This document shows positions 3,105 to 60,741 of a DNA stretch of 64,000 nt, piece after piece (position 1 is the first letter of the stretch; every line of letters begins with the position of its first letter). The DNA is from Candidatus Fermentithermobacillaceae bacterium. Lineage in GTDB: Bacteria; Bacillota; Sulfobacillia; Fermentithermobacillales; Fermentithermobacillaceae. The notes under the pieces are model-generated. The model searched no databases. It had not been told where the DNA came from and saw nothing but the letters and a program-made list of their open reading frames with translations. The stretch covers positions 2,059 to 66,058 of the forward strand of contig DUSI01000047.1 of the NCBI GenBank assembly GCA_012842685.1. Direction: 5' to 3'. The translations under genes and the position numbers were made by a program.

Positions 3105-3134
3105 TTGACAACCCGCTTTTTGCCTCACTATAAT
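3105..3134 (+). promoter_or_regulatory. sigma-A type promoter of groESL (-35 TTGACA 3105-3110, 18 bp spacer, -10 TATAAT 3129-3134)
   Basis: Consensus hexamers read directly from the sequence, immediately upstream of CIRCE. Confidence 0.7.
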
Positions 3135-3143
3135 ATGCCTCGG

Positions 3144-3170
3144 TTAGCACTCGCACCGCTTGAGTGCTAA
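3144..3170 (+). promoter_or_regulatory. CIRCE operator (HrcA binding site) TTAGCACTC-N9-GAGTGCTAA
   Basis: A perfect CIRCE inverted repeat lies between the promoter and groES. Confidence 0.95.
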
Positions 3171-3221
3171 TAACAGGGAAAGAATGCGAAGAACTACCGT
3201 TAAAGGGGGTCATTGTTGGTG

Positions 3222-3512
3222 GTGCTCAAGCCTCTAGCTGACCGCGTGGTCGTGAAGCCGATCAAGGCGGAAGAGATGACCAAGGGAGGAATCGTCCTGC
3301 CCGATACCGCCAAAGACAAGCCGCAAGAGGGCGAAGTCATCGCAGTAGGTACCGGCCGTATCCTTGACAACGGCACCAAGGTTCCTCTCGAAGTCAAGGT
3401 CGGCGACAGAGTGGTCTACTCCAAGTACAGCGGCAGCGAGATCAAGATCGACGGTGAGGAGTACCTCATCATCCGCGAAAGCGAGATCCTCGCCATAAGG
3501 CAGAAGGAGTAG
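3222..3512 (+). CDS. groES: co-chaperonin GroES
   Basis: [43 protein letters not shown].... GTG start at 3222 with AAGGGGG RBS. The track ORF starts 9 nt earlier. Confidence 0.95.
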
Positions 3513-3566
3513 CCGCTTTAGAGGGGCTGCCCGTTAAGATTATCTAGCTAGGAGGGACTGACAGAA

Positions 3567-5186
3567 GTGCCCGCAAAGATAATTGCGTACGACGTAGAGG
3601 CGCGTAAAGCCCTTGAAGCCGGAGTCGCCGCGGTTGCCAACGCGGTGAAGGTAACCCTGGGTCCGAAGGGTCGCAATGTAGTGCTGGACCGCAAGTTCGG
3701 GTCTCCGGTGATCACCAAGGACGGCGTCACCGTAGCGAAGGAAATCGAGCTTTCGGATCCTTATGAGAACATGGGTGCCCAGCTCTGCCGCGAGGTCGCG
3801 AGCAAGACCAACGACGTGGCAGGCGACGGTACCACCACCGCGACTGTCCTCGCTCACGCCATCGTCCGGGAAGGCATGAAGAACGTGGCCGCCGGCGCCA
3901 ACCCCATCTTCCTGAAGAGGGGCATTGACAAGGCCGTCGCCAGGTGCGTCGAAGAGATGAAGAAGATGGCCATCCCGGTCGAGACCAAGGAAGACATCGC
4001 GAACATAGCCGCCAACGCCGGTAACGACAAGGAGATCGGCAACCTCATCGCCGACGCCATGGACAAGGTAGGTAAGGACGGCGTCATCACCATCGAAGAG
4101 TCCAAGGGAACGGCCACCACCGTCGAAGTCGTCGAAGGAATGGAGTTCGACCGCGGTTACCTCTCGGGTTACTTCGTGACCAACACCGAGGCCATGACCG
4201 CCGAACTCGAAGACCCCTTCATCCTCATCTACGAGAAGAAGATCTCCGCAGTTGCCGACATCCTGCCGCTTCTTGAGAAAGTAGCCAGGGCAGGCAGGCC
4301 GCTCCTCATCATAGCCGAAGACCTTGAGGGTGAGGCTCTCGCTACCCTCGTCCTCAACAAGATCCGCGGTACCCTGCAGGTCTGCGCCGTCAAGGCGCCC
4401 GGATTCGGCGACAGGCGCAAGGCCATGCTCGGCGACATCGCTGTGCTCACCGGCGGCCAGTTTATCTCCGAAGACCTCGGCGTGAAGCTTGAGAACGTCG
4501 ATCTCAGCATGCTCGGCCAGGCCGCCAGGGTCAAGGTCGCCAAGGAGAAGACCACCATCGTGGAAGGCAAGGGCTCCAAGAAGGACATTGAGGCCCGCAT
4601 CGCCCAGATCCGCAAGGAGCTCGAAGAGACCGATTCCGATTACGACCGCGAGAAGCTCCAGGAGAGGCTCGCCAAGCTCGCAGGCGGCGTAGCGGTCATC
4701 AAGGTCGGCGCCGCTTCGGAGACCGAGCTCAAGGAGAAGAAGCACCGCTTCGAGGATGCCCTCTCGGCTACCAGGGCCGGCGTTGAAGAGGGTATGGTAC
4801 CGGGCGGCGGCACCATCTTCATCAACGTCGCTCCGGTTATCGACGAGCTTGACCTCACCGGCGACGAGAAGGTCGGCGCCATGATCGTCAAGAAGGCCCT
4901 CGAGGAGCCGCTCAAGCAGATCGCCAACAACGCCGGTCTTGAGGGTTCGGTTATCGTCGAGAAGGTCAAAAACTCGGGCAAGAAGGGTTGGGGCCTTGAG
5001 GTTATCTCCGGTGAGTTCATCGACCTCGCTAAGAACGGCGTAGTCGACCCGCTCAAGGTCGTCCGTTCGGCCCTTGAGAACGCTGCATCGGTGGCGTCCA
5101 TGGTCCTCACCACGGATTGCCTCATCGCCGAGAAGCCCGAGAAGGAGAAGACCCCGCCGTACCCGAACCCGGATATGGATTACTAA
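3567..5186 (+). CDS. groEL: chaperonin GroEL (group I, Cpn60)
   Basis: 539 aa with AAVEEGIVPGGG...[10 protein letters not shown]-type GroEL motifs. Confidence 0.97.
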
Positions 5187-5207
5187 ACCGGCGGTTTGAA
5201 CGCGAAC

Positions 5208-5246
5208 AAGGTCCGGGACCCCGTCCCGGGCCTTTGACTTGTTTGT
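5208..5246 (+). terminator. rho-independent terminator after groEL (GGTCCGGGACCCCGTCCCGGGCC hairpin + TTTGACTTGTTTGT)
   Basis: GC-rich inverted repeat followed by a T-rich tract, directly after the groEL stop. Confidence 0.7.
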
Positions 5247-10907: not shown

Positions 10908-12152
10908 ATGGAAACTTACAGGCGCAGGAAGGACAAGCCCGGTGCGCCCGTCTTGGCGGCGGTGCTGTTCGGGCTTTTCGTCATAGCGTCTCTCCTTTTT
11001 CGCCATGAAGTAGTATCGGGGAACGTGTGGGCCATGGGAGTGCCTCTGGGCGGTCTTCCCCGGCGGGAGGCCGAAGAGGTGCTCCGCGAGAGAATTCAGG
11101 AGCTTAAAGAAGGCCCCATAGTCTTCGTGGCCGGGAGCAAGACTTTCGAGGTAAGTCCACAGGAGATCGGCCTTCACGTGGACGAAAAAGAGATCCTGAG
11201 CTCTCTCGACGCGTACGTATCGGCGGCTCCCCGACTGTGGTCTTCCCTTTTCTCCAAGAGGGGAGCGAAGACGGTCATGGCCGCTCCCATAACCATAAAG
11301 CTACCCGCCGCCGGGGATATCCTAGGCGAGATCGCGCGGGCGCTTTCTTCAAAGCCGGAGAGATCCCGGTACGATTTCGAGGGTCGGGACCTGGTCGTTG
11401 TGCCCGCTTCTCCAGGGCAGGTCGTGACCGAAGAAGACGTAGCCATGGCCCTCCAGAGCATCCAGGGTACCCGCGTCGAGGTCCCCTATACCCCTGTAGA
11501 AGCGCCCGAGAGCGAGGAGCTTCCTGCGCTGTCTCTCCTGGCCGAGTTCTCCACCGAGTACGACGTCGAAGACACTGACAGGAACGTGAACCTGGCCCTC
11601 GCCGCCCAGGCGGTTCACCTCAAAGTCCTTGAGCCGGGACAAGTCTACAGCTTCAACAAGGAAGCGGGCGAGAGGACCGTGGCAAAAGGGTACCGGTACG
11701 CCATGGTTGTCGTGGGGGACCGGTTGGAGCCAGGCCTCGCCGGCGGGATATGCCAGGTGACGACCACTTTGTTTGACGCCGCCGCCCTGGCGGGCCTGGA
11801 TTTTCCGTTTGTGACCGCCCACGGGATACCCGTGGAGTATGTGCCTCCGGGCATGGACGCCGCGGTCGCGTGGGATTACCTTGACCTCAAGATAAAGAAC
11901 AACACGGACGAAAAAGTGGTTTTCGGCGCGTGGGTTGAAGACGGGCTCGTGACGGTGAGGGTCTTCGGAAAGCCCGATGGGTATACATACGAGATCGTAC
12001 CGGTCACGGTTGCCGAGTACCCCTCGCCCGGAAAGCGGCCGGGTCTCCTGGTCGAGACGTATAGGGTCAAGAAGCTGAACGGCGTGGAAGTAGAACGCGA
12101 GCTCATAATGCGCAACACTTACTTGCCATCCTATCCGCCGCCCACGAGGTAG
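10908..12152 (+). CDS. VanW family protein (YoaR-like)
   Basis: N-terminal TM helix, peptidoglycan-binding-like region, and the VanW core ...GGGICQVTTTLFDAAALAGL.... Confidence 0.85.
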   Translation: METYRRRKDKPGAPVLAAVLFGLFVIASLLFRHEVVSGNVWAMGVPLGGLPRREAEEVLRERIQELKEGPIVFVAGSKTFEVSPQEIGLHVDEKEILSSLDAYVSAAPRLWSSLFSKRGAKTVMAAPITIKLPAAGDILGEIARALSSKPERSRYDFEGRDLVVVPASPGQVVTEEDVAMALQSIQGTRVEVPYTPVEAPESEELPALSLLAEFSTEYDVEDTDRNVNLALAAQAVHLKVLEPGQVYSFNKEAGERTVAKGYRYAMVVVGDRLEPGLAGGICQVTTTLFDAAALAGLDFPFVTAHGIPVEYVPPGMDAAVAWDYLDLKIKNNTDEKVVFGAWVEDGLVTVRVFGKPDGYTYEIVPVTVAEYPSPGKRPGLLVETYRVKKLNGVEVERELIMRNTYLPSYPPPTR

Positions 12153-18540: not shown

Positions 18541-18862
18541 CGCACATTCACCTCGCGTCATAGTTATGGCCCCTTCACCACAAGGGCGAAGGGGCCTCGT
18601 TCGCGGTACCACCTTGCTTCCGGTAGGGACGCACGGCGCTTGCTTTACATCCCCAGACGCTCAAACGACCATAAACCCGCATCCTTGGGGCCTATCCTAC
18701 CGGCACTCTCGGCCTTAACGCGGCCACGCGCACGGGCGTTTCCGCCCGCGTCCTCAGGGGCGACCTTCGGCAGTCTCTTCCCGCAGGGCTCCCACCATAT
18801 GCCCCGCTCTCTGAGGGAGAACCTCTGCCTACTCCTCCCCGTCATCGGATTTCCCTACTAGT
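18541..18862 (-). promoter_or_regulatory. T-box riboswitch leader of valS (probable GUC Val specifier; antiterminator AAGGUGGUACCGCG; terminator hairpin)
   Basis: The - strand carries the conserved T-box AAGGTGGTACCGCGA (UGGU bulge matching a discriminator A), an AGAGA K-turn motif, and a candidate specifier loop ...CCGAAGGUCGCC.... It ends in a GGCCCCTTC...GAAGGGGCC hairpin just before the valS RBS. Confidence 0.85.
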
Positions 18863-18956: not shown

Positions 18957-20163
18957 GTGAGGATATTGCCAATCTACAGCGTACAGCCGGGAATGCGTCT
19001 GGGCCGGTCAGTGCTGGATCAAGATGGCCGGCTCATCGTAGCTGCAGGGGTTACGCTGACGAGGCGTCTCCTCACTTTGCTCGAAGAACAGGGCTATACC
19101 GCGGTGTACATAGCCGACGGCTTCGACGACGTTGAGCTCCCCGAAGTGGTGCGCCTCGAGACCAAACACGAGGTCATAAAGAGCATAAGACAGTTCGTCG
19201 AGTCCGAGGCCCTTTACGACAAGCGGCTGGCAATGTCGCTTACGTATAGAGGCGGACCTCCCGCCCCCAATATGGTCAGCAAGGCCAGATATGATGCGTG
19301 CCTGAGTATAGTCAGGGCGGCCGAGATGCTTGTCACCGACATTTTGTCCCAGACAGAAGTAATAATCGGCATGGTAGATATAAAATCCCTGCACGACTAC
19401 AGTTTTGCCCACGCGGTCAACGTCGCCCTGATATCCCTAGTAGTTGGCAGGATGATGGGGTATGGGAAGAGGGAACTCAGGGAACTCGGGATCGGAGCCC
19501 TCCTTCACGATATAGGCAAGACCGCCGTCTCGAGCTCCATTTGGCTAAAGCCCTAGGGCCTTACGAGAGAGGAGTTCGAAATAGTCAGGGATCACCCCGT
19601 GGAGGGATTTGAGATATTGAGGAAGACTTCCCTCGGCCTCCTTCCGGCCCACGTGGCTTACCAGCACCATGAGCGCTGGGACGGGAGCGGCTACCCCCGA
19701 GGTCTCCGCGGCGAAAACATCCTCGCTTACGCAAGGATCACGGCCGTGTGCGACGTATTTGACGCCATGACGTCCGACCGTCCCTACAAAGGCGAGGCAT
19801 CCCCTGGAAGCCCTCTCGTTCATCGTGCAAAACTCGGGCGTTTTCTTTGACCCGAAGGTAGTAGGCGCGTTTTCTCGGGTGGTGGCTCCTTTTCCCGTCG
19901 CCACAGGGGTAATACTCTCAACGAACGAGACCGCGGTGGTGAAGAGCCTCAACCCTCACGATCTGGAAAGGCCGGTAGTCGCGGTAACCAAAGACCCCGA
20001 TGGGAATTACTACCCCAGCCCCAGAACAATAGATCTCGTACTCCACCCCGAGATACAGATAGTAAGCTACGCCGAATGGTACACGGCTCCCAACATAGAC
20101 GAGATGTTGGCGATGAGCGGCATCCTCGCGGGACCTTCGGACAGGAAGATCTCCTCCGGCTAG
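18957..20163 (+). pseudogene. HD-GYP domain phosphodiesterase (c-di-GMP), disrupted by an in-frame TAG at 19554-19556 and a +/-1 frameshift near 19795-19805
   Basis: Three consecutive track ORFs (18957..19556, 19599..19850, 19825..20163) together encode one HD-GYP protein. Motifs: LLHDIGK, HHERWDGSGYPRGL, DRPYK. The first two ORFs are in the same frame, separated only by TAG (...IWLKP*GLTREEFEIVRDHP...). The third continues in another frame as PLEALSFIVQNSGVFFDPKVV. Confidence 0.65.
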
Positions 20164-22894: not shown

Positions 22895-22970
22895 TGGTGG
22901 CCCCAACGGGACTCGAACCCGTGTTACCGCCTTGAAAGGGCGGTGTCTTAGACCTCTTGACCATGGGGCC
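22895..22970 (-). tRNA. tRNA-Glu (anticodon TTC), CCA encoded
   Basis: Reverse complement GGCCCCATGGTCAAGAGGTCTAAGACACCGCCCTTTCAAGGCGGTAACACGGGTTCGAGTCCCGTTGGGGCCACCA folds as a cloverleaf with anticodon loop CTTTCAA. Confidence 0.9.
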
Positions 22971-22983
22971 ACTTCAACTAAAT

Positions 22984-23058
22984 TGGTGCGCCCGGGGTGC
23001 ATCGAACACCCGACCAATCGGTTATGAGCCGACCGCTCTGCCACTGAGCTACGGGCGC
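22984..23058 (-). tRNA. tRNA-Met (anticodon CAT; elongator-type, could alternatively be lysidine tRNA-Ile2), CCA encoded
   Basis: Reverse complement GCGCCCGTAGCTCAGTGGCAGAGCGGTCGGCTCATAACCGATTGGTCGGGTGTTCGATGCACCCCGGGCGCACCA. G1-C72 pair present, so it is not an initiator. Confidence 0.85.
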
Positions 23059-23066
23059 ACACATTT

Positions 23067-23141
23067 TGGCTCCCCGAGTAGGATTCGAACCTACAACCCT
23101 CCGGTTAACAGCCGGATGCTCTACCGTTGAGCTATCGAGGA
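23067..23141 (-). tRNA. tRNA-Asn (anticodon GTT), CCA encoded
   Basis: Reverse complement TCCTCGATAGCTCAACGGTAGAGCATCCGGCTGTTAACCGGAGGGTTGTAGGTTCGAATCCTACTCGGGGAGCCA. Anticodon loop CTGTTAA. Confidence 0.9.
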
Positions 23142-23299: not shown

Positions 23300-23644
23300 A
23301 TGGTGCGTGGTAACTCGTGGATAGGCGCCGTGGTGAGGTTCATAGTCTCGGCGATCGTGCTCATGGTGATGGGCCTGGTTCTCCCGGGATTTCGTCTATT
23401 CGGCTTTGTAAATGCGCTAATAGCTGCTGTAGTGATCGCCGCCCTGGGATGGGCAATCGAGGCCATCCTCGGAGAACGGGTTTCACCGCAGTCCAGGGGA
23501 CTTATCGGCTTCATCGTGGCGGCCGTCGTGATCTACGTCGCCCAGTTTGTTGTGCCGGGCATGTCCGTCACGATCCTGGGAGCGCTCCTTGCATCGCTGG
23601 TAGTGGGCATCATAGACGCTTTCGTGCCCACGGTGATACGGTAG
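23300..23644 (+). CDS. small polytopic membrane protein, phage-holin-4-2-like family
   Basis: 114 aa, 3-4 TM helices, WIGAVVRFIVSAIVLMVMGLVLPGF...FVNALIAAVVIAALGW pattern. Confidence 0.55.
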   Translation: MVRGNSWIGAVVRFIVSAIVLMVMGLVLPGFRLFGFVNALIAAVVIAALGWAIEAILGERVSPQSRGLIGFIVAAVVIYVAQFVVPGMSVTILGALLASLVVGIIDAFVPTVIR

Positions 23645-23741
23645 CGGTACCCTTGTAAACAAAAGGTGTAGCGATAAGCAGCCGGGCCGGCTTCTCGGGC
23701 GAATTATCCTCCCCCGAGTTTCATATCCAAGGAACTAGGGG

Positions 23742-24860
23742 GTGAGGAGGGTTAGCTCCGTCGAGAAGCGCAAGGTCCGGCTGCTTGTCGCACAAGGACT
23801 ATCAATCATACTGCTCCTCGCTTTTTCTCTATCGGTAAAGGTAAGTCCGGCCGTCCCGGCGCTGAGCGGCCCCGCCGCGGAAGTGGATCAGGACCTCAGG
23901 ACGCTCTCGGTCTTTGATTTTCTGTGGAAGAAGGACAGCCTCGCCAAAGAAGTGCTGAGGCTCGCGTTCCCCATGCTGAGGTACGCCGAGGAAGGCAGGC
24001 ACGATGGCCATGAGGCGCCTATACTCTTCAGGGTGGCCGGGTATTTCCTGGGCTTCATCCCGCAGTCAGCGAAGGACCTGGCTTTTGGGGGATTTCCAGG
24101 ATTTCTCCTGGAGAGCGAGGCGCTCGAGGCTTCAGTAACCCTCTACGACCCCAGGAAACTGGAAGACGACTGGGGGTATACCCCCGTCATGTTCTCCCTC
24201 CCACCGGGCGAGGCGCCTCCCACAGCCGCACTTCTGTCGGGCGGTCCTCTGGTGGCCATCTACCATACCCACGCGACAGAGTCGTACCTGCCCGAGATCG
24301 GGAAGACCCAAGCGACTGAGGCCTTTTCTTCCAATATGTCCAAGACGGTGATGCGCGTGGGCGATCTTCTAGCCCAAGAGCTCGAGACCCGCTACCGGAT
24401 CCCGGTCCTCCACTCCAGGACTGTCCACGATGCCGAGACAAGAGTGGGTGCGTACTACAGGTCGGAGCAGACGGTAAGAGCGATCCTTGACAAGTACCCT
24501 TCTTGCACCTACCTCATAGATCTCCACCGGGACAGCCAGCCGCGGAGCATAACCGCCGTGACGATCAGAGGCAAGCCTTACGCAAGGGTCCTCTTCGTGG
24601 TAGGGACGGACAATCCGAACTGGGTGAAAAACTACGAGTTCAGCCGCAAACTCAGTGAGAAGCTGGAAGAAGCCTATCCGGGGATATCCAGGGGCGTCTT
24701 CTATGAGTCGGCGGTCTACAACCAGAAGTACAGCCCCAATGCCATCCTGGTAGAATGCGGTGGGGTCGGCAACACCATGGAAGAGTGCGAAAACACCGTA
24801 AAGGCGCTGGCTTGGGCGCTCGCGTCCCTGATCCTGCCTGCGGCCCCCGATGCTCCCTAG
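23742..24860 (+). CDS. spoIIP: stage II sporulation protein P (SpoIIP, engulfment amidase/endopeptidase)
   Basis: N-terminal TM; conserved VAIYHTHATESY...DLHRD... SpoIIP signature. Confidence 0.85.
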   Translation: MRRVSSVEKRKVRLLVAQGLSIILLLAFSLSVKVSPAVPALSGPAAEVDQDLRTLSVFDFLWKKDSLAKEVLRLAFPMLRYAEEGRHDGHEAPILFRVAGYFLGFIPQSAKDLAFGGFPGFLLESEALEASVTLYDPRKLEDDWGYTPVMFSLPPGEAPPTAALLSGGPLVAIYHTHATESYLPEIGKTQATEAFSSNMSKTVMRVGDLLAQELETRYRIPVLHSRTVHDAETRVGAYYRSEQTVRAILDKYPSCTYLIDLHRDSQPRSITAVTIRGKPYARVLFVVGTDNPNWVKNYEFSRKLSEKLEEAYPGISRGVFYESAVYNQKYSPNAILVECGGVGNTMEECENTVKALAWALASLILPAAPDAP

Positions 24861-24874
24861 CGGGCTACGCCTGA

Positions 24875-24940
24875 TTGACACTTCTCCTTGTCCGGTGCTA
24901 TTTTTCATCTAGGTTAGCACTCTCGGGAGCAGAGTGCTAA
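24875..24940 (+). promoter_or_regulatory. hrcA operon control region: -35 TTGACA (24875-24880), weak -10, and a perfect CIRCE TTAGCACTC-N9-GAGTGCTAA (24914-24940)
   Basis: Second perfect CIRCE in the window, followed by AGGAGG and the GTG of hrcA. Confidence 0.9.
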
Positions 24941-24957
24941 AGGAGGGGAGGCGGGAC

Positions 24958-25977
24958 GTGACTCTCGACGAAAGAAAGGCTCGCGTTTTGCGAGCAGTCG
25001 TAGAGGAGTACATCGAGACCGGCATGCCGGTGGGCTCGCGAGTGATCGCCAAACGGTACCGGTTGGGAGTAAGCCCCGCGACCATCAGAAACGAAATGGC
25101 CGACCTCGAAGATACAGGCTATCTCGATAAGCCCCACACTTCTTCAGGACGCGTCCCTTCCGACAGGGGATACCGGTTCTACGTTGACGAACTCATGCCC
25201 AAGAAAAAGCTCACCGCCGACGAATCCAGGGCTATCGAATCCTTGTTCCGGACAAAGATGCGAGACGTCGTCTCTTTTCTCCGGGAAGTCGTGAGGGTGG
25301 TGTCTGAGACTTCCCATTACCTCGGGTTCGTGCTGGGACCCGACTGCGAGTCCGTGACGTTCAGGAGCATCCATATCCTCCCCGCGTCTTCAGAGAAAGC
25401 CCTGCTCGTGCTCATAACCGATATAGGCTTCGTGGAGACGTGCCTCATAGAGAGCGATGTCCCCAGCGAGGAACTCGCCGGGATTTCCGAGATGCTCTCC
25501 CGAAACCTTACCGGAGTGACCATGGACCGGGTTGCCGACAAGGCGTACAGCCTACTGAAGGAAGAAACGTCCAGGTACGCCATGATCGTAGACCAGGTCG
25601 TAGAGTTTTTGCGGAGCGTCACGATGTCGGAAGGCGAGAGGCTCTATGTGGGAAGCCCGGTGAACCTCTTGAACCTACCCGAGTTTAGGGATGTGGAACG
25701 GCTCAAGGGAGTCATGGCGGCCATCGAGTCAAACGGCATCCTCAAAGCCATCCTCACGAGGTCCCACGACGAGACCAGTCCGACCATCCGGATAGGAGTC
25801 GAGAACGAGGACGAGTCGATAAGGGATATTTCCATGGTCTACGGGACGTTCAGCGCTGGGTCCACCGAAGGAAAGGTCGGCATCTTGGGACCCAAGCGGA
25901 TGGACTACTCCAAGGCCGTTGCCATAGTCAGCATGCTTGAAGACAGGCTCTCCGGCTATTTCGCCAGGAACAGGTAG
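24958..25977 (+). CDS. hrcA: heat-inducible transcription repressor HrcA
   Basis: (V)TLDERKARVLRAVVEEYIETGMPVGSRVIAKRY... is the canonical HrcA N-terminus. GTG at 24958 lies 11 nt after AGGAGG. The track start (24934) lies inside CIRCE. Confidence 0.9.
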   Translation: MTLDERKARVLRAVVEEYIETGMPVGSRVIAKRYRLGVSPATIRNEMADLEDTGYLDKPHTSSGRVPSDRGYRFYVDELMPKKKLTADESRAIESLFRTKMRDVVSFLREVVRVVSETSHYLGFVLGPDCESVTFRSIHILPASSEKALLVLITDIGFVETCLIESDVPSEELAGISEMLSRNLTGVTMDRVADKAYSLLKEETSRYAMIVDQVVEFLRSVTMSEGERLYVGSPVNLLNLPEFRDVERLKGVMAAIESNGILKAILTRSHDETSPTIRIGVENEDESIRDISMVYGTFSAGSTEGKVGILGPKRMDYSKAVAIVSMLEDRLSGYFARNR

Positions 25978-26039
25978 GCCGGAAAGCGCCGGGTGACCAA
26001 GGCCCCGGACCCGATACTCGAAGTACTTAGGAGGGACTC

Positions 26040-27623
26040 ATGTTGACTCTAAAGGGCCACGCGGCAGAAGCTTCCGAGATCAACGAGAAACTCGCGGCAC
26101 TCCTCACCAACGCTAACGCGGTGCGGGCCATCGCCTCGGCGGTTGAGGGTACGATCGGGCCCAAAGGCCTCGATACCCTTCTGGTCGACCGGTTCGGCGA
26201 GGTCGTCATAACCAACGACGGGATGACCATCCTCACCAAGATGGATGTGAACCATCCCGCGGCCAAGATGGTCATCAACACCGCCAAAGCCCAGGAAGAC
26301 GAAGTCGGTGACGGCACCACGACGGCCACCATCATGGCCGGCGCCCTTCTCACGGAAGGGGTGAACCAGGCGGCGCGCGGCGTGCCGGTGACCCGGATCA
26401 TCGACGGCGTGCGCCAGGGGATCCAGAAGGCAATTGAGATCGTGTCCGAAAGGGCGATCAAGATAAACGACGTGGATGACCCCATGCTTTACCAGGTCGC
26501 CCTGGTGGCAGGCCGGGACAACAGGGACATAGCGGAACTCGTGGTCAAGGCGGCCAAAATGGTCGGCAAGGAGAAACTCCTCGACCCGCGCTTTAAGCTT
26601 TCCGAGACCATCGTGGCCAAGGAAGGCGCGGAAAACGAGGTTTTCGCAGGGATAATCATTGACAAGAAGCGCCTCAATGAGGAGATGCCCGAATCCCTGG
26701 ATGAACCCAAGATCCTGGTGGTCGACGACGCCCTCGAACCCGAAGAGGTAGAGGAAGAAGCCCTCTCCACCGAAGTGGGATTCCAGAGGTACCTTGAACT
26801 CCAGGAAGAGTTCAAGGCCAACCTGGACAAAGTGGTAAAGATGGGCGTGCGGTTTATAGTTGTCGACAAGGGGATCTCCGATATCGCCGAAGAGATGCTG
26901 ACCGACGCCGGAGTGATGGTGGTCACCAGGGTGTCTTCCGGTGAGCTCCGCAAGGTTTGCGAGCACACGGGCGCCCGCGCCATAAAGAGGACCGGGCTAA
27001 AGAAGTCGCCCGAGGAGCTTGCCAAGTACCTGGGCGGGGCTGAGAAGGTCTACGAGGACCAGAAGCTCGAGAACGTAAGGATACTGGGCGGAAATGGGAA
27101 GCCCATGGCGACCATCCTGGTGGGCGCGACTACGGGGGAAGTGAGAGGCGAAAGGGAGCGTATCTGCACCGACGCGGCGTCATCGGTCCAGGCTGCCATA
27201 AAAGGCGGCGTAGTGCCGGGAGGCGGCGCCATCGAGCTGGCGTGCGCCCGAGAAGTAGAAAAGATGCGGCTCGGCCAGAAGGGCATGCAGGCCTACGGCC
27301 TTCTCTGCGTAGTTGAGGCTCTGAAGCGGCCGCTGGCACAGATCGTTGCCAACGCGGGGTTTAACCCCCTTGAGAAAGTCGGCGACGCCATGGCGAAGCA
27401 GACAGAAGAAAACAGCGACCGGCTGGCCGTCGATTGCGACACCGGAGAGATAGTGGACATGGTGGATATAGGTGTCATAGACCCGGCGCCGGTCAAGACC
27501 CATGCCCTCAAGGCCGCCATGGAGATCGCTTGCGCGATTCTCAGGATCGACACCATCATCAAGAAGAAAGAGGAAGGACCAGAACCTTCCCAGGGTGACT
27601 CGGCGGAGGATATGGACTTTTGA
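26040..27623 (+). CDS. archaeal-type (group II / 'group III') chaperonin, thermosome/CCT family, encoded inside the hrcA-dnaJ operon
   Basis: 527 aa. [65 protein letters not shown] and ...[11 protein letters not shown]... match thermosome/TCP-1 signatures, not GroEL. No GGM tail. AGGAGGG RBS 5 nt before the ATG. Confidence 0.9.
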
Positions 27624-28792
27624 GGAAGGACTACTATGAGATACTCGGCGTTCCCAAGAACGCCACCCAAGAAGAGATAAAGAGGGCCTTCAGGCAGCTC
27701 GCTAAGAAGCACCATCCCGATGCCAACCCGGGAGACAAAGAGGCCGAGGCGCGTTTCAAAGAGATAAACGAGGCCTACGAGGTGCTCTCTGACCCCCAGA
27801 AGCGGGCCAACTACGATGCCTACGGACATCCGGACGGGCCCTTCGCCGGCGGGGCAGGGGGTTCTGCGGGCGGCGGCCGGACGGCCGGCGATCCTTTTGG
27901 CAGGGTCTTTGGGGATTTCGGCGGCTTCCCGTTCGGAGACCTCTTCGAGGGGTTCGAGGAGATCTTCGGCGGGGGCAGGAGGCAGGCCGATACCGGACCC
28001 CGCAGGGGTGACGACCTCGAGCTGGAGCTGGACATAACCCTGGAAGAAGCCTTTACGGGCGTGGAGCGCGACATAAGGATCCCGCGGACCGAGAGGTGCC
28101 CGAGGTGCCAGGGAAGCGGCGCCGAGCCGGGGACCGAGACAAAGACGTGTCCTACCTGCCACGGGAGCGGACAGGTGAGGACCACGAGGGTTACCATGCT
28201 GGGCTCCTTCGTGACGATCACCACGTGTTCAAGGTGCGGCGGCACCGGCAAAGTCGTCGAGAAGCCATGCCGGGAATGCGGCGGTAGGGGCGACGTCTCC
28301 AGGACCAAGACAGTCACAGTCACTGTGCCGCCCGGGGCAGATTCGGGACTCAGGCTCAGGCTCCAGGGACAGGGTAACGCCGGCGTAAGGGGCGGCCCTC
28401 CGGGGGACCTATATGTAGTCGTGTTTGTAAGGCCCCACGAGCGTTTCCAGCGCCAAGGGGATGACCTCATACTCGACCAGGTAGTGAGTTTCCCTCTCGC
28501 GGCCATAGGTGGAACCGTGACGGTCAAGGGTATAGACGGAGAGTTCGAGATGGACGTGCCCGCCGGGACCCAGCCGGGGGCGGTCCTCAGGCTCAGAGGC
28601 AAGGGTATGCCGCGCCTCAGGTCCAAAGGAAGAGGCGACATGCTGGTCAGGGTTAACGTGAGGGTCCCCACCAAGCTTACGAACCGGGAAAAAGAGATCT
28701 TGAAGCAGATCGGAAAGCTGGACGGAGAGACCTTCGCCGATACGAGGTCGTTTTTCGACAAGCTGAGAGGGGCTGACGGAGGGTCCAAGTGA
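27620..28792 (+). CDS. dnaJ: molecular chaperone DnaJ (type I: J domain, G/F region, four CxxCxGxG zinc fingers)
   Basis: (M)[33 protein letters not shown]...; [35 protein letters not shown] start overlapping the chaperonin stop. Confidence 0.92.
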
Positions 28793-29544
28793 GCAAGAAC
28801 CAGAGCCATACCCCGCCCCTATATTTCGTCGATCCCTCCATGGTTTTGGGGAGCCAGATCGTCCTTACCGGGGACGCCTACCGGCACGCCCTGGCCCAGC
28901 GGCTCTCGCCGGGTGAAGTTTTCAGGGCCGTCTTGGGCGAGACCGAGTATACCGCGGAAGTCGAGGGGATCCTTCCGGGAAAACTCGTGGCGTCCATCAC
29001 CGGCCGTGTGCGCGTAAGCCCGCCGCCCGTCAGGATCCACCTTTACGCAGCCCTGCTTAAGCACCAGAATCTGGACCTCGTGGTGGAGAAGGCCACGGAG
29101 CTCGGTGTTTCCTCTTTCACGCCCATCGTGACCGCGAGGACCATACCGCGGCTCAGTCCGGAAAAAGCGGCTGCGAGGCGGGAGCGCTGGATAAGGGTTG
29201 CAAAGGCTGCCGCCGAGCAATCGGGCAGGGGGACGCTCCCCGATGTCCGCGACGTGAGCACCCTCGAACAGATCCTCGACCGGGGGGTGCCTGGCGTGCG
29301 TCTCCTCGCCCACGAGCACGAAGGGCTAACGGTGCCCATCGGCGTGGCGACCCGGGGACACGCCGAAGCTTCCATCATCGTGGGGCCCGAAGGCGGCCTG
29401 GATGCCTCTGAGGTAGAGATGGTCCTTTCGAAAGGCTTCACGCCCGTCTCTCTCGGCCCATACATCCTGAAGGCCGAGACCGCAGGGATAGCCGCGGTGG
29501 CGGTGCTTATGAGCTTCATGTCGGCCGGTTCTACGGAGAGGTAG
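28789..29544 (+). CDS. rsmE: 16S rRNA (uracil1498-N3)-methyltransferase RsmE
   Basis: 251 aa. PUA-like N-terminus and SPOUT domain. Position after dnaJ matches Firmicutes synteny. Confidence 0.85.
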
Positions 29545-29576
29545 CACCCACATAAGCTCTACCGGGTGGTACCTTT

Positions 29577-30293
29577 ATGTTCGTCCTCAAGCGGAAGTAT
29601 CTGTGGGGGGCCGTTTTGTCGGCGATCCTGTGGGCGGCATGCGTTCTTAACCTCTTGGGGATGTACCATGCAAGGGAGGCAATGGCCGGCGTGGCCCCCA
29701 TAACCCGGGGGTACTCGGGACGGCCCTACGTCTCGCTCATGTTCAACGTCGACTGGGGAGAAGAGCATATCCCCCCTCTCCTCGATATATTGGCCTCGAA
29801 AGGCGCGCTCGCGACGTTTTTCCCGACCGGAACTTGGGCCGAAAAGAACCCGTCTCTCCTCCAAAGGATAGTGGCGGAAGGGCACGAGATCGGTAACCAC
29901 GGAGGAGCCCACAACCACATAGAGAGGATGGGAAAACAGAGCCTCCAGCGCCTCATCCAGAGCGGCGAAGAAAGGATCTACCAGGCCTGCGGCGTCTATC
30001 CCTCCAAACTTTTCGCGCCGCCTTACGGAGAGTGGTACGATAAAATAGTGGAGTACGCGCTGGAACTCGGATACCAGACGGTGCTCTGGACCGTGGACAC
30101 CGTGGATTGGAGACTGCCCGAACCTGAAGCCATCTGGAAGCGGGCCCTCGCCGGGGTCGTCCCAGGCGCTTTGATCCTCATGCATCCAACAGAACCCACC
30201 GTATCTGCGCTACCCACCCTCATAGACGGCCTCAGGGAAAAAGGCCATACAATAGTGACTGTGTCGGAGAACATATCTGACCGCCTGCGGTAA
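29577..30293 (+). CDS. polysaccharide deacetylase family (NodB-homology) protein, PdaB-like
   Basis: N-terminal TM; ...MFNVDWGEE...GHEIGNHGGAHNH... is the NodB catalytic motif. Confidence 0.8.
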   Translation: MFVLKRKYLWGAVLSAILWAACVLNLLGMYHAREAMAGVAPITRGYSGRPYVSLMFNVDWGEEHIPPLLDILASKGALATFFPTGTWAEKNPSLLQRIVAEGHEIGNHGGAHNHIERMGKQSLQRLIQSGEERIYQACGVYPSKLFAPPYGEWYDKIVEYALELGYQTVLWTVDTVDWRLPEPEAIWKRALAGVVPGALILMHPTEPTVSALPTLIDGLREKGHTIVTVSENISDRLR

Positions 30294-30358
30294 AGATATA
30301 ATGTTGGAAAACGACGAAGCTTCCAGCGACTAGAAAGGTAAGGTAAAGCGCTTTGCCC

Positions 30359-31633
30359 ATGAGGACCGTTTCCTTCCGCACTTTTGGATGCAAGCAGAAC
30401 CGCTACGACACCGATTTTCTCAGGGAGAGCTTCGAGAAAAAGGGTTTCAAAGTCGTCCAGGGCGACGCGGACGTGGTAGTCATAAACACTTGCGCGGTGA
30501 CCTCGAGGAGCGCCCAGAAATGCCGCCAGGCCATACGGGCCGCGGCCAGAAGAGGCGCCAAGGTGGTCGTGACGGGCTGTTACCCACAGATCGCCGCCGG
30601 CGAGGTAAGCCGGATCCCGGGGGTTATGGTGGTCTCGGGAGTGAGGGAGAGGAGCCGTCTCCCCGACCTCGTGCTCGAGGCTCTCGAGCGCGGTGAGCCC
30701 ATCGTGGATGTGAAGCCCCACGTCCAAGACGAGGAGTTCGAGGATACCCCGGTGGAGAGACCCGACCTTACCCGGGCCTTCCTCAAGATCCAGGAAGGGT
30801 GCGGAGACTTCTGCACCTACTGCATAGTCCCCTACGCGAGGGGGCCTTCCAGGTCGAAAAGCCCAGAAAGCGTCGTCGAAGAGGCGGAGAGGCTCGTGAG
30901 GAGCGGTTACAAGGAGATAGTCCTGACGGGTACCCACATCGGCCTCTACGGCGGGGGAGGCGCGCTGCCGAAACTCATCGAGCGTGTGAGCCGGATCGAC
31001 GGGCTCATACGTATCCGCGTAAGCTCCCTGGAGCCCCACGACGTGACGCCCGAACTTATCGACTGCCTGAGGCTGCCCAACGTATGCCAGCACCTCCACC
31101 TCCCACTACAGAGCGGGAGCGACCGCATCCTGCGCATGATGGGGCGGAGATACGACGTGGCGCTCTTCATGGACATCGTCCGGAAGGCGAGGAAGGTCGC
31201 ACCGGACCTGGGCCTTACCACGGACATAATCGCCGGGTTCCCGGGGGAGACCGAGGCCGATTTCCAGGAAACCTTGTCCGTCATGAAAGAGGCGGCTTTC
31301 TCGAGGGTTCACGCTTTCAAGTATTCGGACCGTCCGGGGACGCGGGCGTCCGGCTTCAGGGACAAAGTGCCCGAGAGAGTAAAGGAAGAAAGGGTTTCGC
31401 AGGTGATTGCCCTGGGACGGGAACTTTCGGAGGATTTCCACCGTAGACTTGTTGGTAGGGATTTCGAGGTCCTGGTGGAGGATGACCGCGAAAAGGACGG
31501 ACTTCTGGCCGGCTTCACGAGGAACTACGTGAGATGCCGGTTCCCCGGCGATGATGACCTCAAGGGGAAAGTGATAGGTGTTACGGTGCAAGAAGCCGGT
31601 CCCACGGACGTAACCGGTATCCCTAGACGCTGA
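30359..31633 (+). CDS. mtaB: tRNA t6A37 methylthiotransferase MtaB (radical SAM MTTase, YqeV-like)
   Basis: FGCKQNRYD MTTase N-domain and radical SAM CGDFCTYC motif. ATG at 30359 (the track starts 2 codons earlier). Confidence 0.85.
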   Translation: MRTVSFRTFGCKQNRYDTDFLRESFEKKGFKVVQGDADVVVINTCAVTSRSAQKCRQAIRAAARRGAKVVVTGCYPQIAAGEVSRIPGVMVVSGVRERSRLPDLVLEALERGEPIVDVKPHVQDEEFEDTPVERPDLTRAFLKIQEGCGDFCTYCIVPYARGPSRSKSPESVVEEAERLVRSGYKEIVLTGTHIGLYGGGGALPKLIERVSRIDGLIRIRVSSLEPHDVTPELIDCLRLPNVCQHLHLPLQSGSDRILRMMGRRYDVALFMDIVRKARKVAPDLGLTTDIIAGFPGETEADFQETLSVMKEAAFSRVHAFKYSDRPGTRASGFRDKVPERVKEERVSQVIALGRELSEDFHRRLVGRDFEVLVEDDREKDGLLAGFTRNYVRCRFPGDDDLKGKVIGVTVQEAGPTDVTGIPRR

Positions 31634-31639
31634 TTTAGG

Positions 31640-32749
31640 GTGATGAGCGTGCTCAGACTGGGAGTTATTTTCGGCGGGAGATCTGGCGAACACGAGATTT
31701 CGGTGATGAGCGCTTGTTCGGTTATGGCGGCTGCGAAGCAAGCAGGTTTTCAGGTGGTCGCCATCGGGGTGACCAGGCAAGGGCAGTGGGTTTACCTGAG
31801 GGACGGAGAGGCCTTCTTGGAGGCCGGGCATCCGGAAGTGGCGCCAGAGATGGGCCCGTCCTGCTTCCTGCTTCCCGATCCGGACAAGAAGGGCGTGTGG
31901 GTAAACGGCGGGGGGACCATGTTCCTCGTGGAGATAGACGCGGTCTTCCCGGTCCTCCACGGTCCCTATGGCGAAGATGGTACTCTCCAGGGACTCCTGG
32001 AGCTATCGGGCATACCCTATGTAGGCGCCCCGGTCTTGGCATCTGCCGTGTGCATGGACAAATACACGACCAAACGCATCCTGGCTTCCCACGGCGTCCC
32101 TCACGTGCCTGCCATACCCGTCGAGCGGTATGCCTGGAGGACGAAGAGGGAGGAGGTACTTGCGAACCTCCTCGAACGCGTGAGCTACCCGCTTTTCGCC
32201 AAACCTTCCGGGTCCGGGTCGAGCCTCGGAGTTACCAAAGTGAAGAGCCCGGACGCCCTGGCAGGTGCCCTCGATGAGGCATTTCTCTACGATACGAGGG
32301 CTCTCGTCGAGCCTGCCATGGAGGGATGTCTGGAGGTGGAGTGCAGCGTCCTGGGGAACGAGGAACCGGTTGCGTCCATAGCAGGGCAAATCCTCCCTCG
32401 TCGCGAGTTTTACGACTATGAAGCCAAGTATCTTGAAGACACCACCGAGCTGGCGATCCCGGCCAGGCTGGACCCTGAGATGATGGAGATGGTCCGCGAG
32501 CTGGCGGTCCAGGCGTTCCTGGTAACCGGGTGCAAGGGTATGGCGAGGGTGGATTTCTTCGTTGACCTCAAGGCGAGAAAGGCCTACGTGAACGAGCTCA
32601 ATACCATCCCCGGTTTCACTCGCGTAAGCATGTATCCTAAGATGTGGGAAGCCAGCGGGCTGTCGTTCCCGGAACTCGTGAAGAGGCTGGTGGACTTGGC
32701 CCTTGAGCGCCAGACCCAGTCGTGGCGCGAGGTCTACCGAAGAACATAG
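31640..32749 (+). CDS. ddl: D-alanine--D-alanine ligase
   Basis: ...LGVIFGGRSGEHEISVMSA..., ATP-grasp domain. The true start may be GTG at 31649. Confidence 0.9.
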   Translation: MMSVLRLGVIFGGRSGEHEISVMSACSVMAAAKQAGFQVVAIGVTRQGQWVYLRDGEAFLEAGHPEVAPEMGPSCFLLPDPDKKGVWVNGGGTMFLVEIDAVFPVLHGPYGEDGTLQGLLELSGIPYVGAPVLASAVCMDKYTTKRILASHGVPHVPAIPVERYAWRTKREEVLANLLERVSYPLFAKPSGSGSSLGVTKVKSPDALAGALDEAFLYDTRALVEPAMEGCLEVECSVLGNEEPVASIAGQILPRREFYDYEAKYLEDTTELAIPARLDPEMMEMVRELAVQAFLVTGCKGMARVDFFVDLKARKAYVNELNTIPGFTRVSMYPKMWEASGLSFPELVKRLVDLALERQTQSWREVYRRT

Positions 32750-60394: not shown

Positions 60395-60741
60395 GGGGGC
60401 GAACAGGTTCGACGTAGGTAGTCGGGTTTGAGCAGCGAGCATGGGCGCCGTACCCAACAAACGGCAAAGCAATAACTGCCAACAACAGCTACGCACTGGC
60501 TGCCTAATTAAGGCTGCCCGGTGACCGGAGAGACCGCTCTCCTATCTCCGAGTCGCCGTCAGAGAGGAGAGATACCTGCAGGAGGACGTCCGGGATCCTG
60601 TAGGGAAATGAAGTCCGGGCTGGTGGACGATGAAGCCCGCTCCGGGGCGTCACGTCTGCGAGATGAAATCCGGAGCTACGCTCGTAGAGACTGAAACCAG
60701 GCTATTTACGGACGAGGGTGCGATTCCCTCCGCCTCCACCA
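60395..60741 (+). ncRNA. ssrA: tmRNA (ssrA), tag peptide reading frame GCC AAC AAC AGC TAC GCA CTG GCT GCC TAA = (A)ANNSYALAA
   Basis: 5' GGGGGCGAACAGGTTCGACG... pairs with 3' ...GGACGAGGGTGCGATTCCCTCCGCCTCCACCA (tRNA-Ala-like acceptor/T-arm, CCA encoded). The internal tag ORF ends TAA. An extended -10 TGCTATCAT lies about 11 nt upstream. Confidence 0.9.

Follow-up and report, generated by a model that had tools for sequence, protein, structure and literature searches.

We examined a 64-kb window (64,000 nt) from Candidatus Fermentithermobacillaceae bacterium, contig DUSI01000047.1, in which a heat-shock locus at 24875-28792 has the gene order hrcA-cpn-dnaJ; cpn encodes a thermosome-like chaperonin and there is neither grpE nor dnaK. 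Positions are those of this window, the whole stretch of DNA analysed, unless a locus label precedes them. The locus is likely to be a reduced descendant of a five-gene hrcA-cpn-grpE-dnaK-dnaJ operon: a class I operon at the position of the Firmicutes dnaK operon, predicted to be controlled by HrcA through CIRCE, an inverted repeat that controls the expression of chaperones, with Hsp70 most probably encoded elsewhere in the genome. It brings together a known protein family and a known regulator in a reduced operon that lacks its name-giving genes. The elements of the locus and its two immediate neighbours are as follows.

24875-24904, forward strand: predicted sigma-A-type promoter of the operon (TTGACA, 18 nt, TG-extended TATTTT; 10 of 12 consensus positions)
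24914-24940, forward strand: CIRCE operator, the predicted HrcA binding site (TTAGCACTC-TCGGGAGCA-GAGTGCTAA, 0 mismatches)
24958-25977, forward strand: hrcA, heat-inducible repressor, 339 aa (likely GTG start at 24958; TIGR00331 and Pfam HrcA matches)
25978-26039, forward strand: hrcA-cpn spacer, 62 nt, with a ribosome-binding site and without a terminator or conserved structure
26040-27623, forward strand: cpn, group III (bacterial thermosome-like) chaperonin, 527 aa (Pfam Cpn60_TCP1, alignments, tree)
27620-28792, forward strand: dnaJ, class A (type I) J-domain protein, 390 aa (TTG start; TIGR02349 and Pfam domains)
28789-29544, forward strand: rsmE, 16S rRNA methyltransferase (Pfam Methyltrans_RNA 4e-43; TIGR00046 144 bits)
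23742-24860, forward strand: spoIIP, the upstream neighbour (Pfam SpoIIP 1e-69)

The promoter at 24875-24904 is the sole promoter-like site within 23600-31800 (8 kb). The operator behind it is one of two zero-mismatch copies of the CIRCE pattern TTAGCACTC-N9-GAGTGCTAA in the window (24914-24940 and 3144-3170), and no further copy was found there at up to 3 mismatches, giving a total of 2 where 0.02 would be expected by chance. A perfect CIRCE lies directly 5′ of hrcA in all 24 related loci in which this region is present, the arms being invariant and the spacer free to vary. The open frame of hrcA (24934-25977) begins inside the CIRCE; its likely start, the GTG at 24958, agrees with the 339-aa gene call on identical contigs, and a ribosome-binding site, AAGGAGG, is found at 24940-24950. 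HrcA itself was identified by TIGR00331 (310 bits, cutoff 197) and Pfam HrcA (3e-48).

We found no terminator-like site inside the 62-nt spacer between hrcA and cpn. A stem-loop or processing site was also sought there, and the stability of the spacer was not above that of shuffled sequence (z = +1.74); among relatives both its length and its sequence vary, with the ribosome-binding site alone conserved. The cpn stop and the TTG start of dnaJ overlap as TTGA, and the dnaJ stop and the GTG start of rsmE overlap as GTGA. Because of the latter overlap rsmE is probably co-transcribed with dnaJ, and rsmE is likewise found downstream of dnaJ (or prmA) in canonical dnaK operons. Promoter, CIRCE, hrcA, cpn and dnaJ probably form one compact transcription unit that reads on into rsmE.

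The product of cpn matched Pfam Cpn60_TCP1 with 385 bits. Thermosome models gave 312 and 309 bits against 158-186 bits for GroEL models, all of these scores lying under the family cutoffs. When compared with solved structures, the protein scored 675 bits with 9rwq (a reconstructed ancestor placed with group III in our tree), 502 bits with Ch-CPN of Carboxydothermus hydrogenoformans (5x9u) and at most 243 bits with archaeal thermosomes. Its identity to Ch-CPN is 49% over 502 residues, with one single-residue gap. The group III chaperonins are marked by a nucleotide-sensing loop ~6 residues shorter than that of group II and by an arginine (R155 in Ch-CPN) where group II has a lysine (PMC5635000). 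In alignments of the window protein to group II chains a gap of 5-6 residues is present at window residues ~157-160, whereas there is none in the alignment to Ch-CPN. Window R159 corresponds to Ch-CPN R155 and window L444 to Ch-CPN L439, the inter-ring pivot; judged by sequence comparison alone, the built-in lid (Ch-CPN 223-263) aligns ungapped with window residues 228-268. As a family, group III chaperonins are also characterised by a hexadecamer made of two eight-membered rings, which refolds clients in an ATP-dependent manner and needs no co-chaperonin.

A neighbour-joining tree was built from Ch-CPN (5x9u), two thermosomes, two reconstructed ancestors, three GroELs and the window protein, with 60 bootstraps. 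Each of groups I, II and III came out in 60/60 bootstraps, with the window protein placed inside group III. The Cpn60_TCP1 match and a phylogeny spanning the three groups had been set beforehand as the test of the assignment, and in both the protein behaves as a member of the family that falls with group III (60/60) and not with GroEL. The ratio of non-synonymous to synonymous substitution rates (dN/dS) for cpn against its relatives was 0.04-0.09, and across cpn and dnaJ together it was 0.04-0.15. The structure matches, the loop deletion, the conserved residues, the tree and the dN/dS values together indicate that cpn encodes a functional group III chaperonin. One trait that accompanies group III genes, a place inside an hsp70 operon with grpE, dnaK and dnaJ, is missing: cpn is flanked by hrcA and dnaJ, and grpE-dnaK are absent. 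Such a location is, though, a trait of the context and not a property of the chaperonin protein.

In the course of these comparisons we noted that the PDB entry 9rwq is named 'Ancestral Group II Chaperonin (ACII)', yet it scores 675 bits with the window protein as against 304 for 9rwp. The entry probably represents ACIII, the group III ancestor of PMC12696368.

The dnaJ product matched TIGR02349 with 436 bits (cutoff 377), together with Pfam DnaJ, DnaJ_CXXCXGXG and DnaJ_C. It has all the parts of a class A DnaJ: a J-domain with the HPD motif, a Gly/Phe-rich region, four CXXCXGXG repeats (including CRECGGRG) and a C-terminal client-binding domain. In 23 of 23 loci that have no dnaK in the operon the J-domain is conserved throughout, HPD motif included, and in every such lineage no other part of DnaJ is as well conserved. 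The J-domain dN/dS of 0.04-0.11 points to strong purifying selection.

The second CIRCE of the window belongs to a groES-groEL operon.

3105-3170, forward strand: consensus promoter TTGACA-18-TATAAT (3105-3134) and perfect CIRCE (3144-3170)
3213-5234, forward strand: groES (3213-3512), groEL (3567-5186) and terminator (5208-5234), from gene calls and Pfam

The two genes were identified from Cpn10 and Cpn60 gene calls on an identical contig, GroEL also matching Pfam Cpn60_TCP1 with 282 bits, and the terminator is strong, with a 12-bp stem. Both control regions share the same design, namely TTGACA, an 18-nt spacer, the -10 box, 9 nt and the CIRCE. As in a class I regulon, a CIRCE (here in two perfect copies) lies between the promoter and the first gene, and the gene for HrcA is present; groESL is therefore listed here as the predicted second member of an HrcA/CIRCE regulon. 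A preliminary description of this DNA had pointed to this operon (3105-5186), to the perfect CIRCE before hrcA, to a 527-aa protein 62 nt after hrcA that is thermosome-like rather than GroEL-like, to a complete type I dnaJ whose start is overlapped by the stop of that protein, and to the absence of grpE and dnaK from the 64 kb. Our results agree with it on all of these. For the last of them, neither a six-frame scan for DnaK and GrpE motifs nor tblastn of seven DnaK/GrpE queries from relatives found anything in the window, the best match being 19 aa with E = 0.77.

On the model of Bacillus subtilis, HrcA at normal temperature would bind both CIRCE, each 9 nt past the -10 box, and would repress its own operon and groESL together. 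As unfolded proteins accumulated, HrcA would lose activity and both operons would be derepressed; GroES/GroEL would then be produced along with DnaJ and a thermosome-like folding cage that has a lid and is driven by ATP. The architecture is observed, and the regulation is that expected by analogy with B. subtilis. The preliminary description had put forward, as an implication of the arrangement, that HrcA would control a group I chaperonin and a group III chaperonin in a co-ordinated way. This is not new, as HrcA control of both chaperonin types is already stated in a passage of PMC5904260 that credits Techtmann & Robb 2010.

The identical chaperonin protein is recorded on 22 contigs. The gene order is the same at 6/6 places shown, which come from six samples (ENA, JGI, Logan and the NCBI genome bin GCA_029782375.1), one of which carries the label of a biogas fermenter metagenome. 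The nearest species genomes are labelled Ca. Fermentithermobacillaceae and belong to the uncultured class DTU015 (Ca. Fermentithermobacillia), thermophilic fermenters from digesters and coal-fire soils. The hrcA-cpn-dnaJ order is common to 11/11 sampled DTU015 species. The DTU015 clade (the window with L002-L008, L011 and L021) has 100% bootstrap support, and throughout it grpE-dnaK are missing from the operon and cpn abuts dnaJ.

Two irregularities were seen among the related loci. The contigs of L013, L015 and L017, which carry a Firmicutes-type operon (in L013 with spoIIP too), are found in bins labelled Pseudomonadota, Ignavibacteriales and Acetobacteraceae; these bins are probably mis-binned or mislabelled. 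In addition, dnaJ in L001 (L001:8666-9969) and hrcA, cpn and dnaJ in L018 (L018:8953-12721) are each broken into two open reading frames (ORFs), probably by assembly frameshifts rather than as pseudogenes, because the neighbouring genes are intact.

To place the locus among its relatives, the species genomes were scanned for this chaperonin, which gave 28 loci that were annotated against the window proteins and DnaK motifs. The full order hrcA-cpn-grpE-dnaK-dnaJ was present in L016, L017, L025 and L026, and in L022 cpn is followed by the start of grpE before the contig ends. Six look-ups of DnaK homologues, all in other genomes, yielded either full five-gene operons or canonical operons without cpn. 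The former comprise three further lineages (L041, L042/43 and L046), two of them with lepA-hemN upstream and two with rsmE-mtaB downstream, in one case with prmA between. The latter, L047 and L048, have neighbours in common with the window, L048 having holin_4_2 and spoIIP upstream and rsmE-mtaB downstream. In L048 and L041 the order is holin_4_2 - (gpr) - spoIIP - ... - hrcA-grpE-dnaK-dnaJ-prmA-rsmE-mtaB. The common flanks, spoIIP upstream and rsmE and mtaB downstream, indicate that the window locus occupies the orthologous position of the Firmicutes dnaK operon. From these gene orders, the home of the chaperonin gene is between hrcA and grpE, and the genes missing here are grpE-dnaK.

Remnants of dnaK were found in sister lineages. 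Seven dnaK-less loci have an intact ORF of 75-110 aa in a 260-370-nt gap between cpn and dnaJ, at the following positions.

L009:11595-11849; L010:1696-1953; L013:4462-4716; L014:~11617-11943; L020:11476-~11740; L023:9419-9700; L027:11583-11879: DnaK relic ORFs

In tblastn these ORFs align with DnaK residues ~200-285, with E values as low as 7e-14. For six of the seven there is also a Pfam HSP70 match, in every case at positions 224-304 (subdomain IIB of the nucleotide-binding domain), and four of these matches are above the Pfam cutoff. The relic frame is open in seven divergent lineages, with dN/dS of ~0.2-0.3 between the closest pairs and 0.5-0.6 between more distant ones, a pattern suggestive of a retained mini-protein and not of a dead pseudogene. 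The relic adjoins dnaJ in L020, which is sister at 100% bootstrap to L012 and L019, where the relic is absent; it is absent from the window as well. The loci suggest a graded series from the full operon, through the relic only, to nothing. For the window, the grpE-dnaK pair would have been deleted in the ancestor of class DTU015, and this deletion would have left cpn translationally coupled to dnaJ.

Other genes around the locus also differ between relatives. In L041 and L048 lepA and hemN lie between spoIIP and hrcA, and prmA lies between dnaJ and rsmE, whereas the window is without all three (23300-24934 and 28792-30353). Between rsmE and mtaB the window also carries one additional gene, for a polysaccharide deacetylase (pdaB-like). 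The gene order at the locus is therefore fluid, lepA, hemN and prmA being gone here and present in relatives.

Two other accounts of how hrcA, cpn and dnaJ came to be adjacent have been considered. An artefact of assembly, binning or contamination, such as the fusion of a bacterial contig with one that carries an archaeal thermosome, might be suspected from the metagenome-derived source and from the implausible taxon labels on several related genome bins. It is, however, scarcely conceivable given that the order recurs at six places in six samples with the identical protein on 22 contigs, that it is common to eleven species with overlapping stop and start codons, that the protein is of group III and not an archaeal thermosome, and that a Firmicutes gene order carries on at both sides. 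The recurrence in six samples and the gene order of eleven species refute it. The preliminary description had held that the chaperonin took over the slot of GrpE-DnaK, which would amount to insertion of cpn in place of the pair by one displacement event. In the window alone this is how it appears, since cpn fills the space between hrcA and dnaJ. The relatives do not bear it out: cpn coexists with grpE-dnaK in at least seven related or neighbouring lineages, always between hrcA and grpE; intermediate states exist in sister lineages, in which a fragment of DnaK is left after cpn; and group III genes are found inside intact dnaK operons in the literature (PMC5220055, PMC5635000). We regard displacement as very improbable and prefer the deletion of grpE-dnaK from a five-gene operon.

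A harder question is whether, with this deletion, Hsp70 was lost from the cell. The preliminary description had named relocation or loss of the Hsp70 pair as its alternative, and this is indeed the choice that matters. We consider it highly likely that the Hsp70 partner is encoded elsewhere in the genome, because the J-domain is fully conserved. This view is further supported by the fact that the only bacteria reported to be without Hsp70 are also without J-proteins and GrpE (PMC8215388), by the Thermotoga and Streptomyces precedents described below and by the fluid gene order. Several points weigh against it, and against the reduced, HrcA-controlled operon more generally. No dnaK or grpE is present in the 64 kb or in 7.6 kb further upstream, a stretch that contains no chaperone genes, and none was found in the +/-10 kb flanks of 23 related loci without dnaK in the operon. 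The relics of the sister lineages speak for decay in place and not for translocation, so that any Hsp70 encoded elsewhere could only be a second copy. Searches for DnaK homologues with the L016 and L017 queries gave no DTU015 protein in the best 120 of 8000 matches, these 120 being from Negativicutes, Thermosediminibacterales, Desulfofundulus and similar; this result is uninformative, as a long-branch lineage would miss the best 120. The deep branching among lineages with the full operon, the relic or neither has bootstraps of only 2-64%. Finally, HrcA regulation, co-transcription and heat induction are predictions.

The alternative is a genuine loss, in which DTU015 would be without DnaK and GrpE, the group III chaperonin together with GroEL would have taken over, and DnaJ would act as a holdase feeding the chaperonin, or alone. 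The clean removal of grpE-dnaK and the translational coupling of cpn to dnaJ in every DTU015 genome would fit this, as would the in-place decay just described and the absence of lepA and the non-essential hemN and prmA from the same locus. The organisms are also thermophilic, and there are known cases of Hsp70 loss among thermophilic Aquificales and among hyperthermophilic archaea (PMC8215388). Set against this, the J-domain is without a known role beyond Hsp70 activation, yet it is the best-conserved part of DnaJ, with an invariant HPD; the known Hsp70-less bacteria lost J-proteins and GrpE too, whereas the window has a complete DnaJ; operons with hrcA and dnaJ but without dnaK have precedents in Thermotoga, where dnaK is in a separate operon, and in Streptomyces, where hrcA is found with a second dnaJ; and the sequence inspected amounts to ~72 kb of one genome. 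Genuine loss is for these reasons unlikely in our judgement. We are equally doubtful of the stronger form of the idea, that the class discarded Hsp70 and GrpE and kept DnaJ coupled to an archaeal-type chaperonin which the J-protein serves directly.

What follows from the locus depends on which of these applies. With dnaK merely elsewhere, the locus would be an ordinary rearrangement of an operon whose deletion history is clear, and the case becomes striking only if whole genomes prove to be without Hsp70. Should these genomes prove to contain no Hsp70, theirs would be the first known case of bacteria with a J-protein but without Hsp70, and a bacterial counterpart to hyperthermophilic archaea, in which proteostasis is thermosome-based and Hsp70-free. 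Co-operation between group III chaperonins and DnaK has hitherto been assumed mainly from the constant location in the hsp70 operon. In the present set (DTU015 and several other lineages) the link that survives is between chaperonin, DnaJ and HrcA, and not between chaperonin and DnaK. The locus weakens the argument from context for a chaperonin-DnaK partnership and highlights the conserved chaperonin-DnaJ coupling; it offers a natural experiment on which factor delivers clients to the bacterial thermosome-like cage.

The window contains further features that are separate from the heat-shock loci.

18579-18854, reverse strand: T-box leader before valS
22895-23141, reverse strand: tRNA-Glu/Met/Asn cluster
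60395-60741, forward strand: transfer-messenger RNA (tmRNA), tag ANNSYALAA

An HD-domain gene at 18957-19850 appears to be split in the window, as it is on the ENA contig (199 aa and 77 aa), and is one 297-aa gene on the JGI contig of the same organism; the split is a strain-level frameshift or a sequencing error.

The preliminary description had suggested that the architecture might be undescribed. This holds in so far as no description of hrcA-cpn-dnaJ was found in the searchable literature, which does not cover the founding paper (Techtmann & Robb 2010); it does not hold for dnaK-less hrcA-dnaJ operons in general, which have precedents. The DTU015 genome paper and its supplements make no mention of chaperones, and a literature search on loss of dnaK or Hsp70 returned nothing relevant. 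In the published record the group III genes are, with one exception, inside the DnaK operon with grpE, dnaK and dnaJ, and this is the basis for their proposed link to DnaK (PMC5220055, PMC5635000). The statement in the preliminary description that such loci carry grpE and dnaK was correct, both for these papers and for the relatives fetched here. The window locus resembles that of C. hydrogenoformans and other Firmicutes (Techtmann & Robb 2010; An et al. 2017) in the chaperonin family, the loop deletion and the Arg155/Leu439 equivalents. It also resembles the Carboxydothermus-type locus in having cpn directly after hrcA, CIRCE/HrcA control in common with groESL, and dnaJ downstream. It differs in that grpE and dnaK are present there and both are missing from the window, where the cpn stop overlaps the dnaJ start. 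The argument for a CPN-DnaK partnership from conserved arrangement (PMC5635000) does not hold for the DTU015 operon.

The hrcA-grpE-dnaK-dnaJ operon of B. subtilis is alike in position, with spoIIP upstream and rsmE and mtaB downstream, and in its sigma-A promoter and CIRCE, autoregulated hrcA and second CIRCE at groESL. By comparison, the window adds the group III chaperonin, is without grpE, dnaK and prmA, and does not have lepA and hemN upstream.

In Streptomyces the dnaK operon is located elsewhere. There hrcA occurs with a second dnaJ, as given in the title of Grandvalet 1998 cited in PMC5904260. Thermotoga maritima has hrcA-grpE-dnaJ and a separate operon of dnaK with a small heat-shock protein gene (dnaK-sHSP; PMC11277822). 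In both, hrcA and dnaJ are joined without dnaK, as in the window, but there is no chaperonin gene between them, and Thermotoga keeps grpE in the operon. Desulfurobacterium and Thermovibrio have lost DnaK-DnaJ-GrpE, according to the summary of Warnecke 2012 in PMC8215388. They too are thermophiles from which the Hsp70 genes have been removed, and there all three partners were lost. Unlike them, the window has kept DnaJ, and the J-domain of this DnaJ is intact; this speaks against complete loss.

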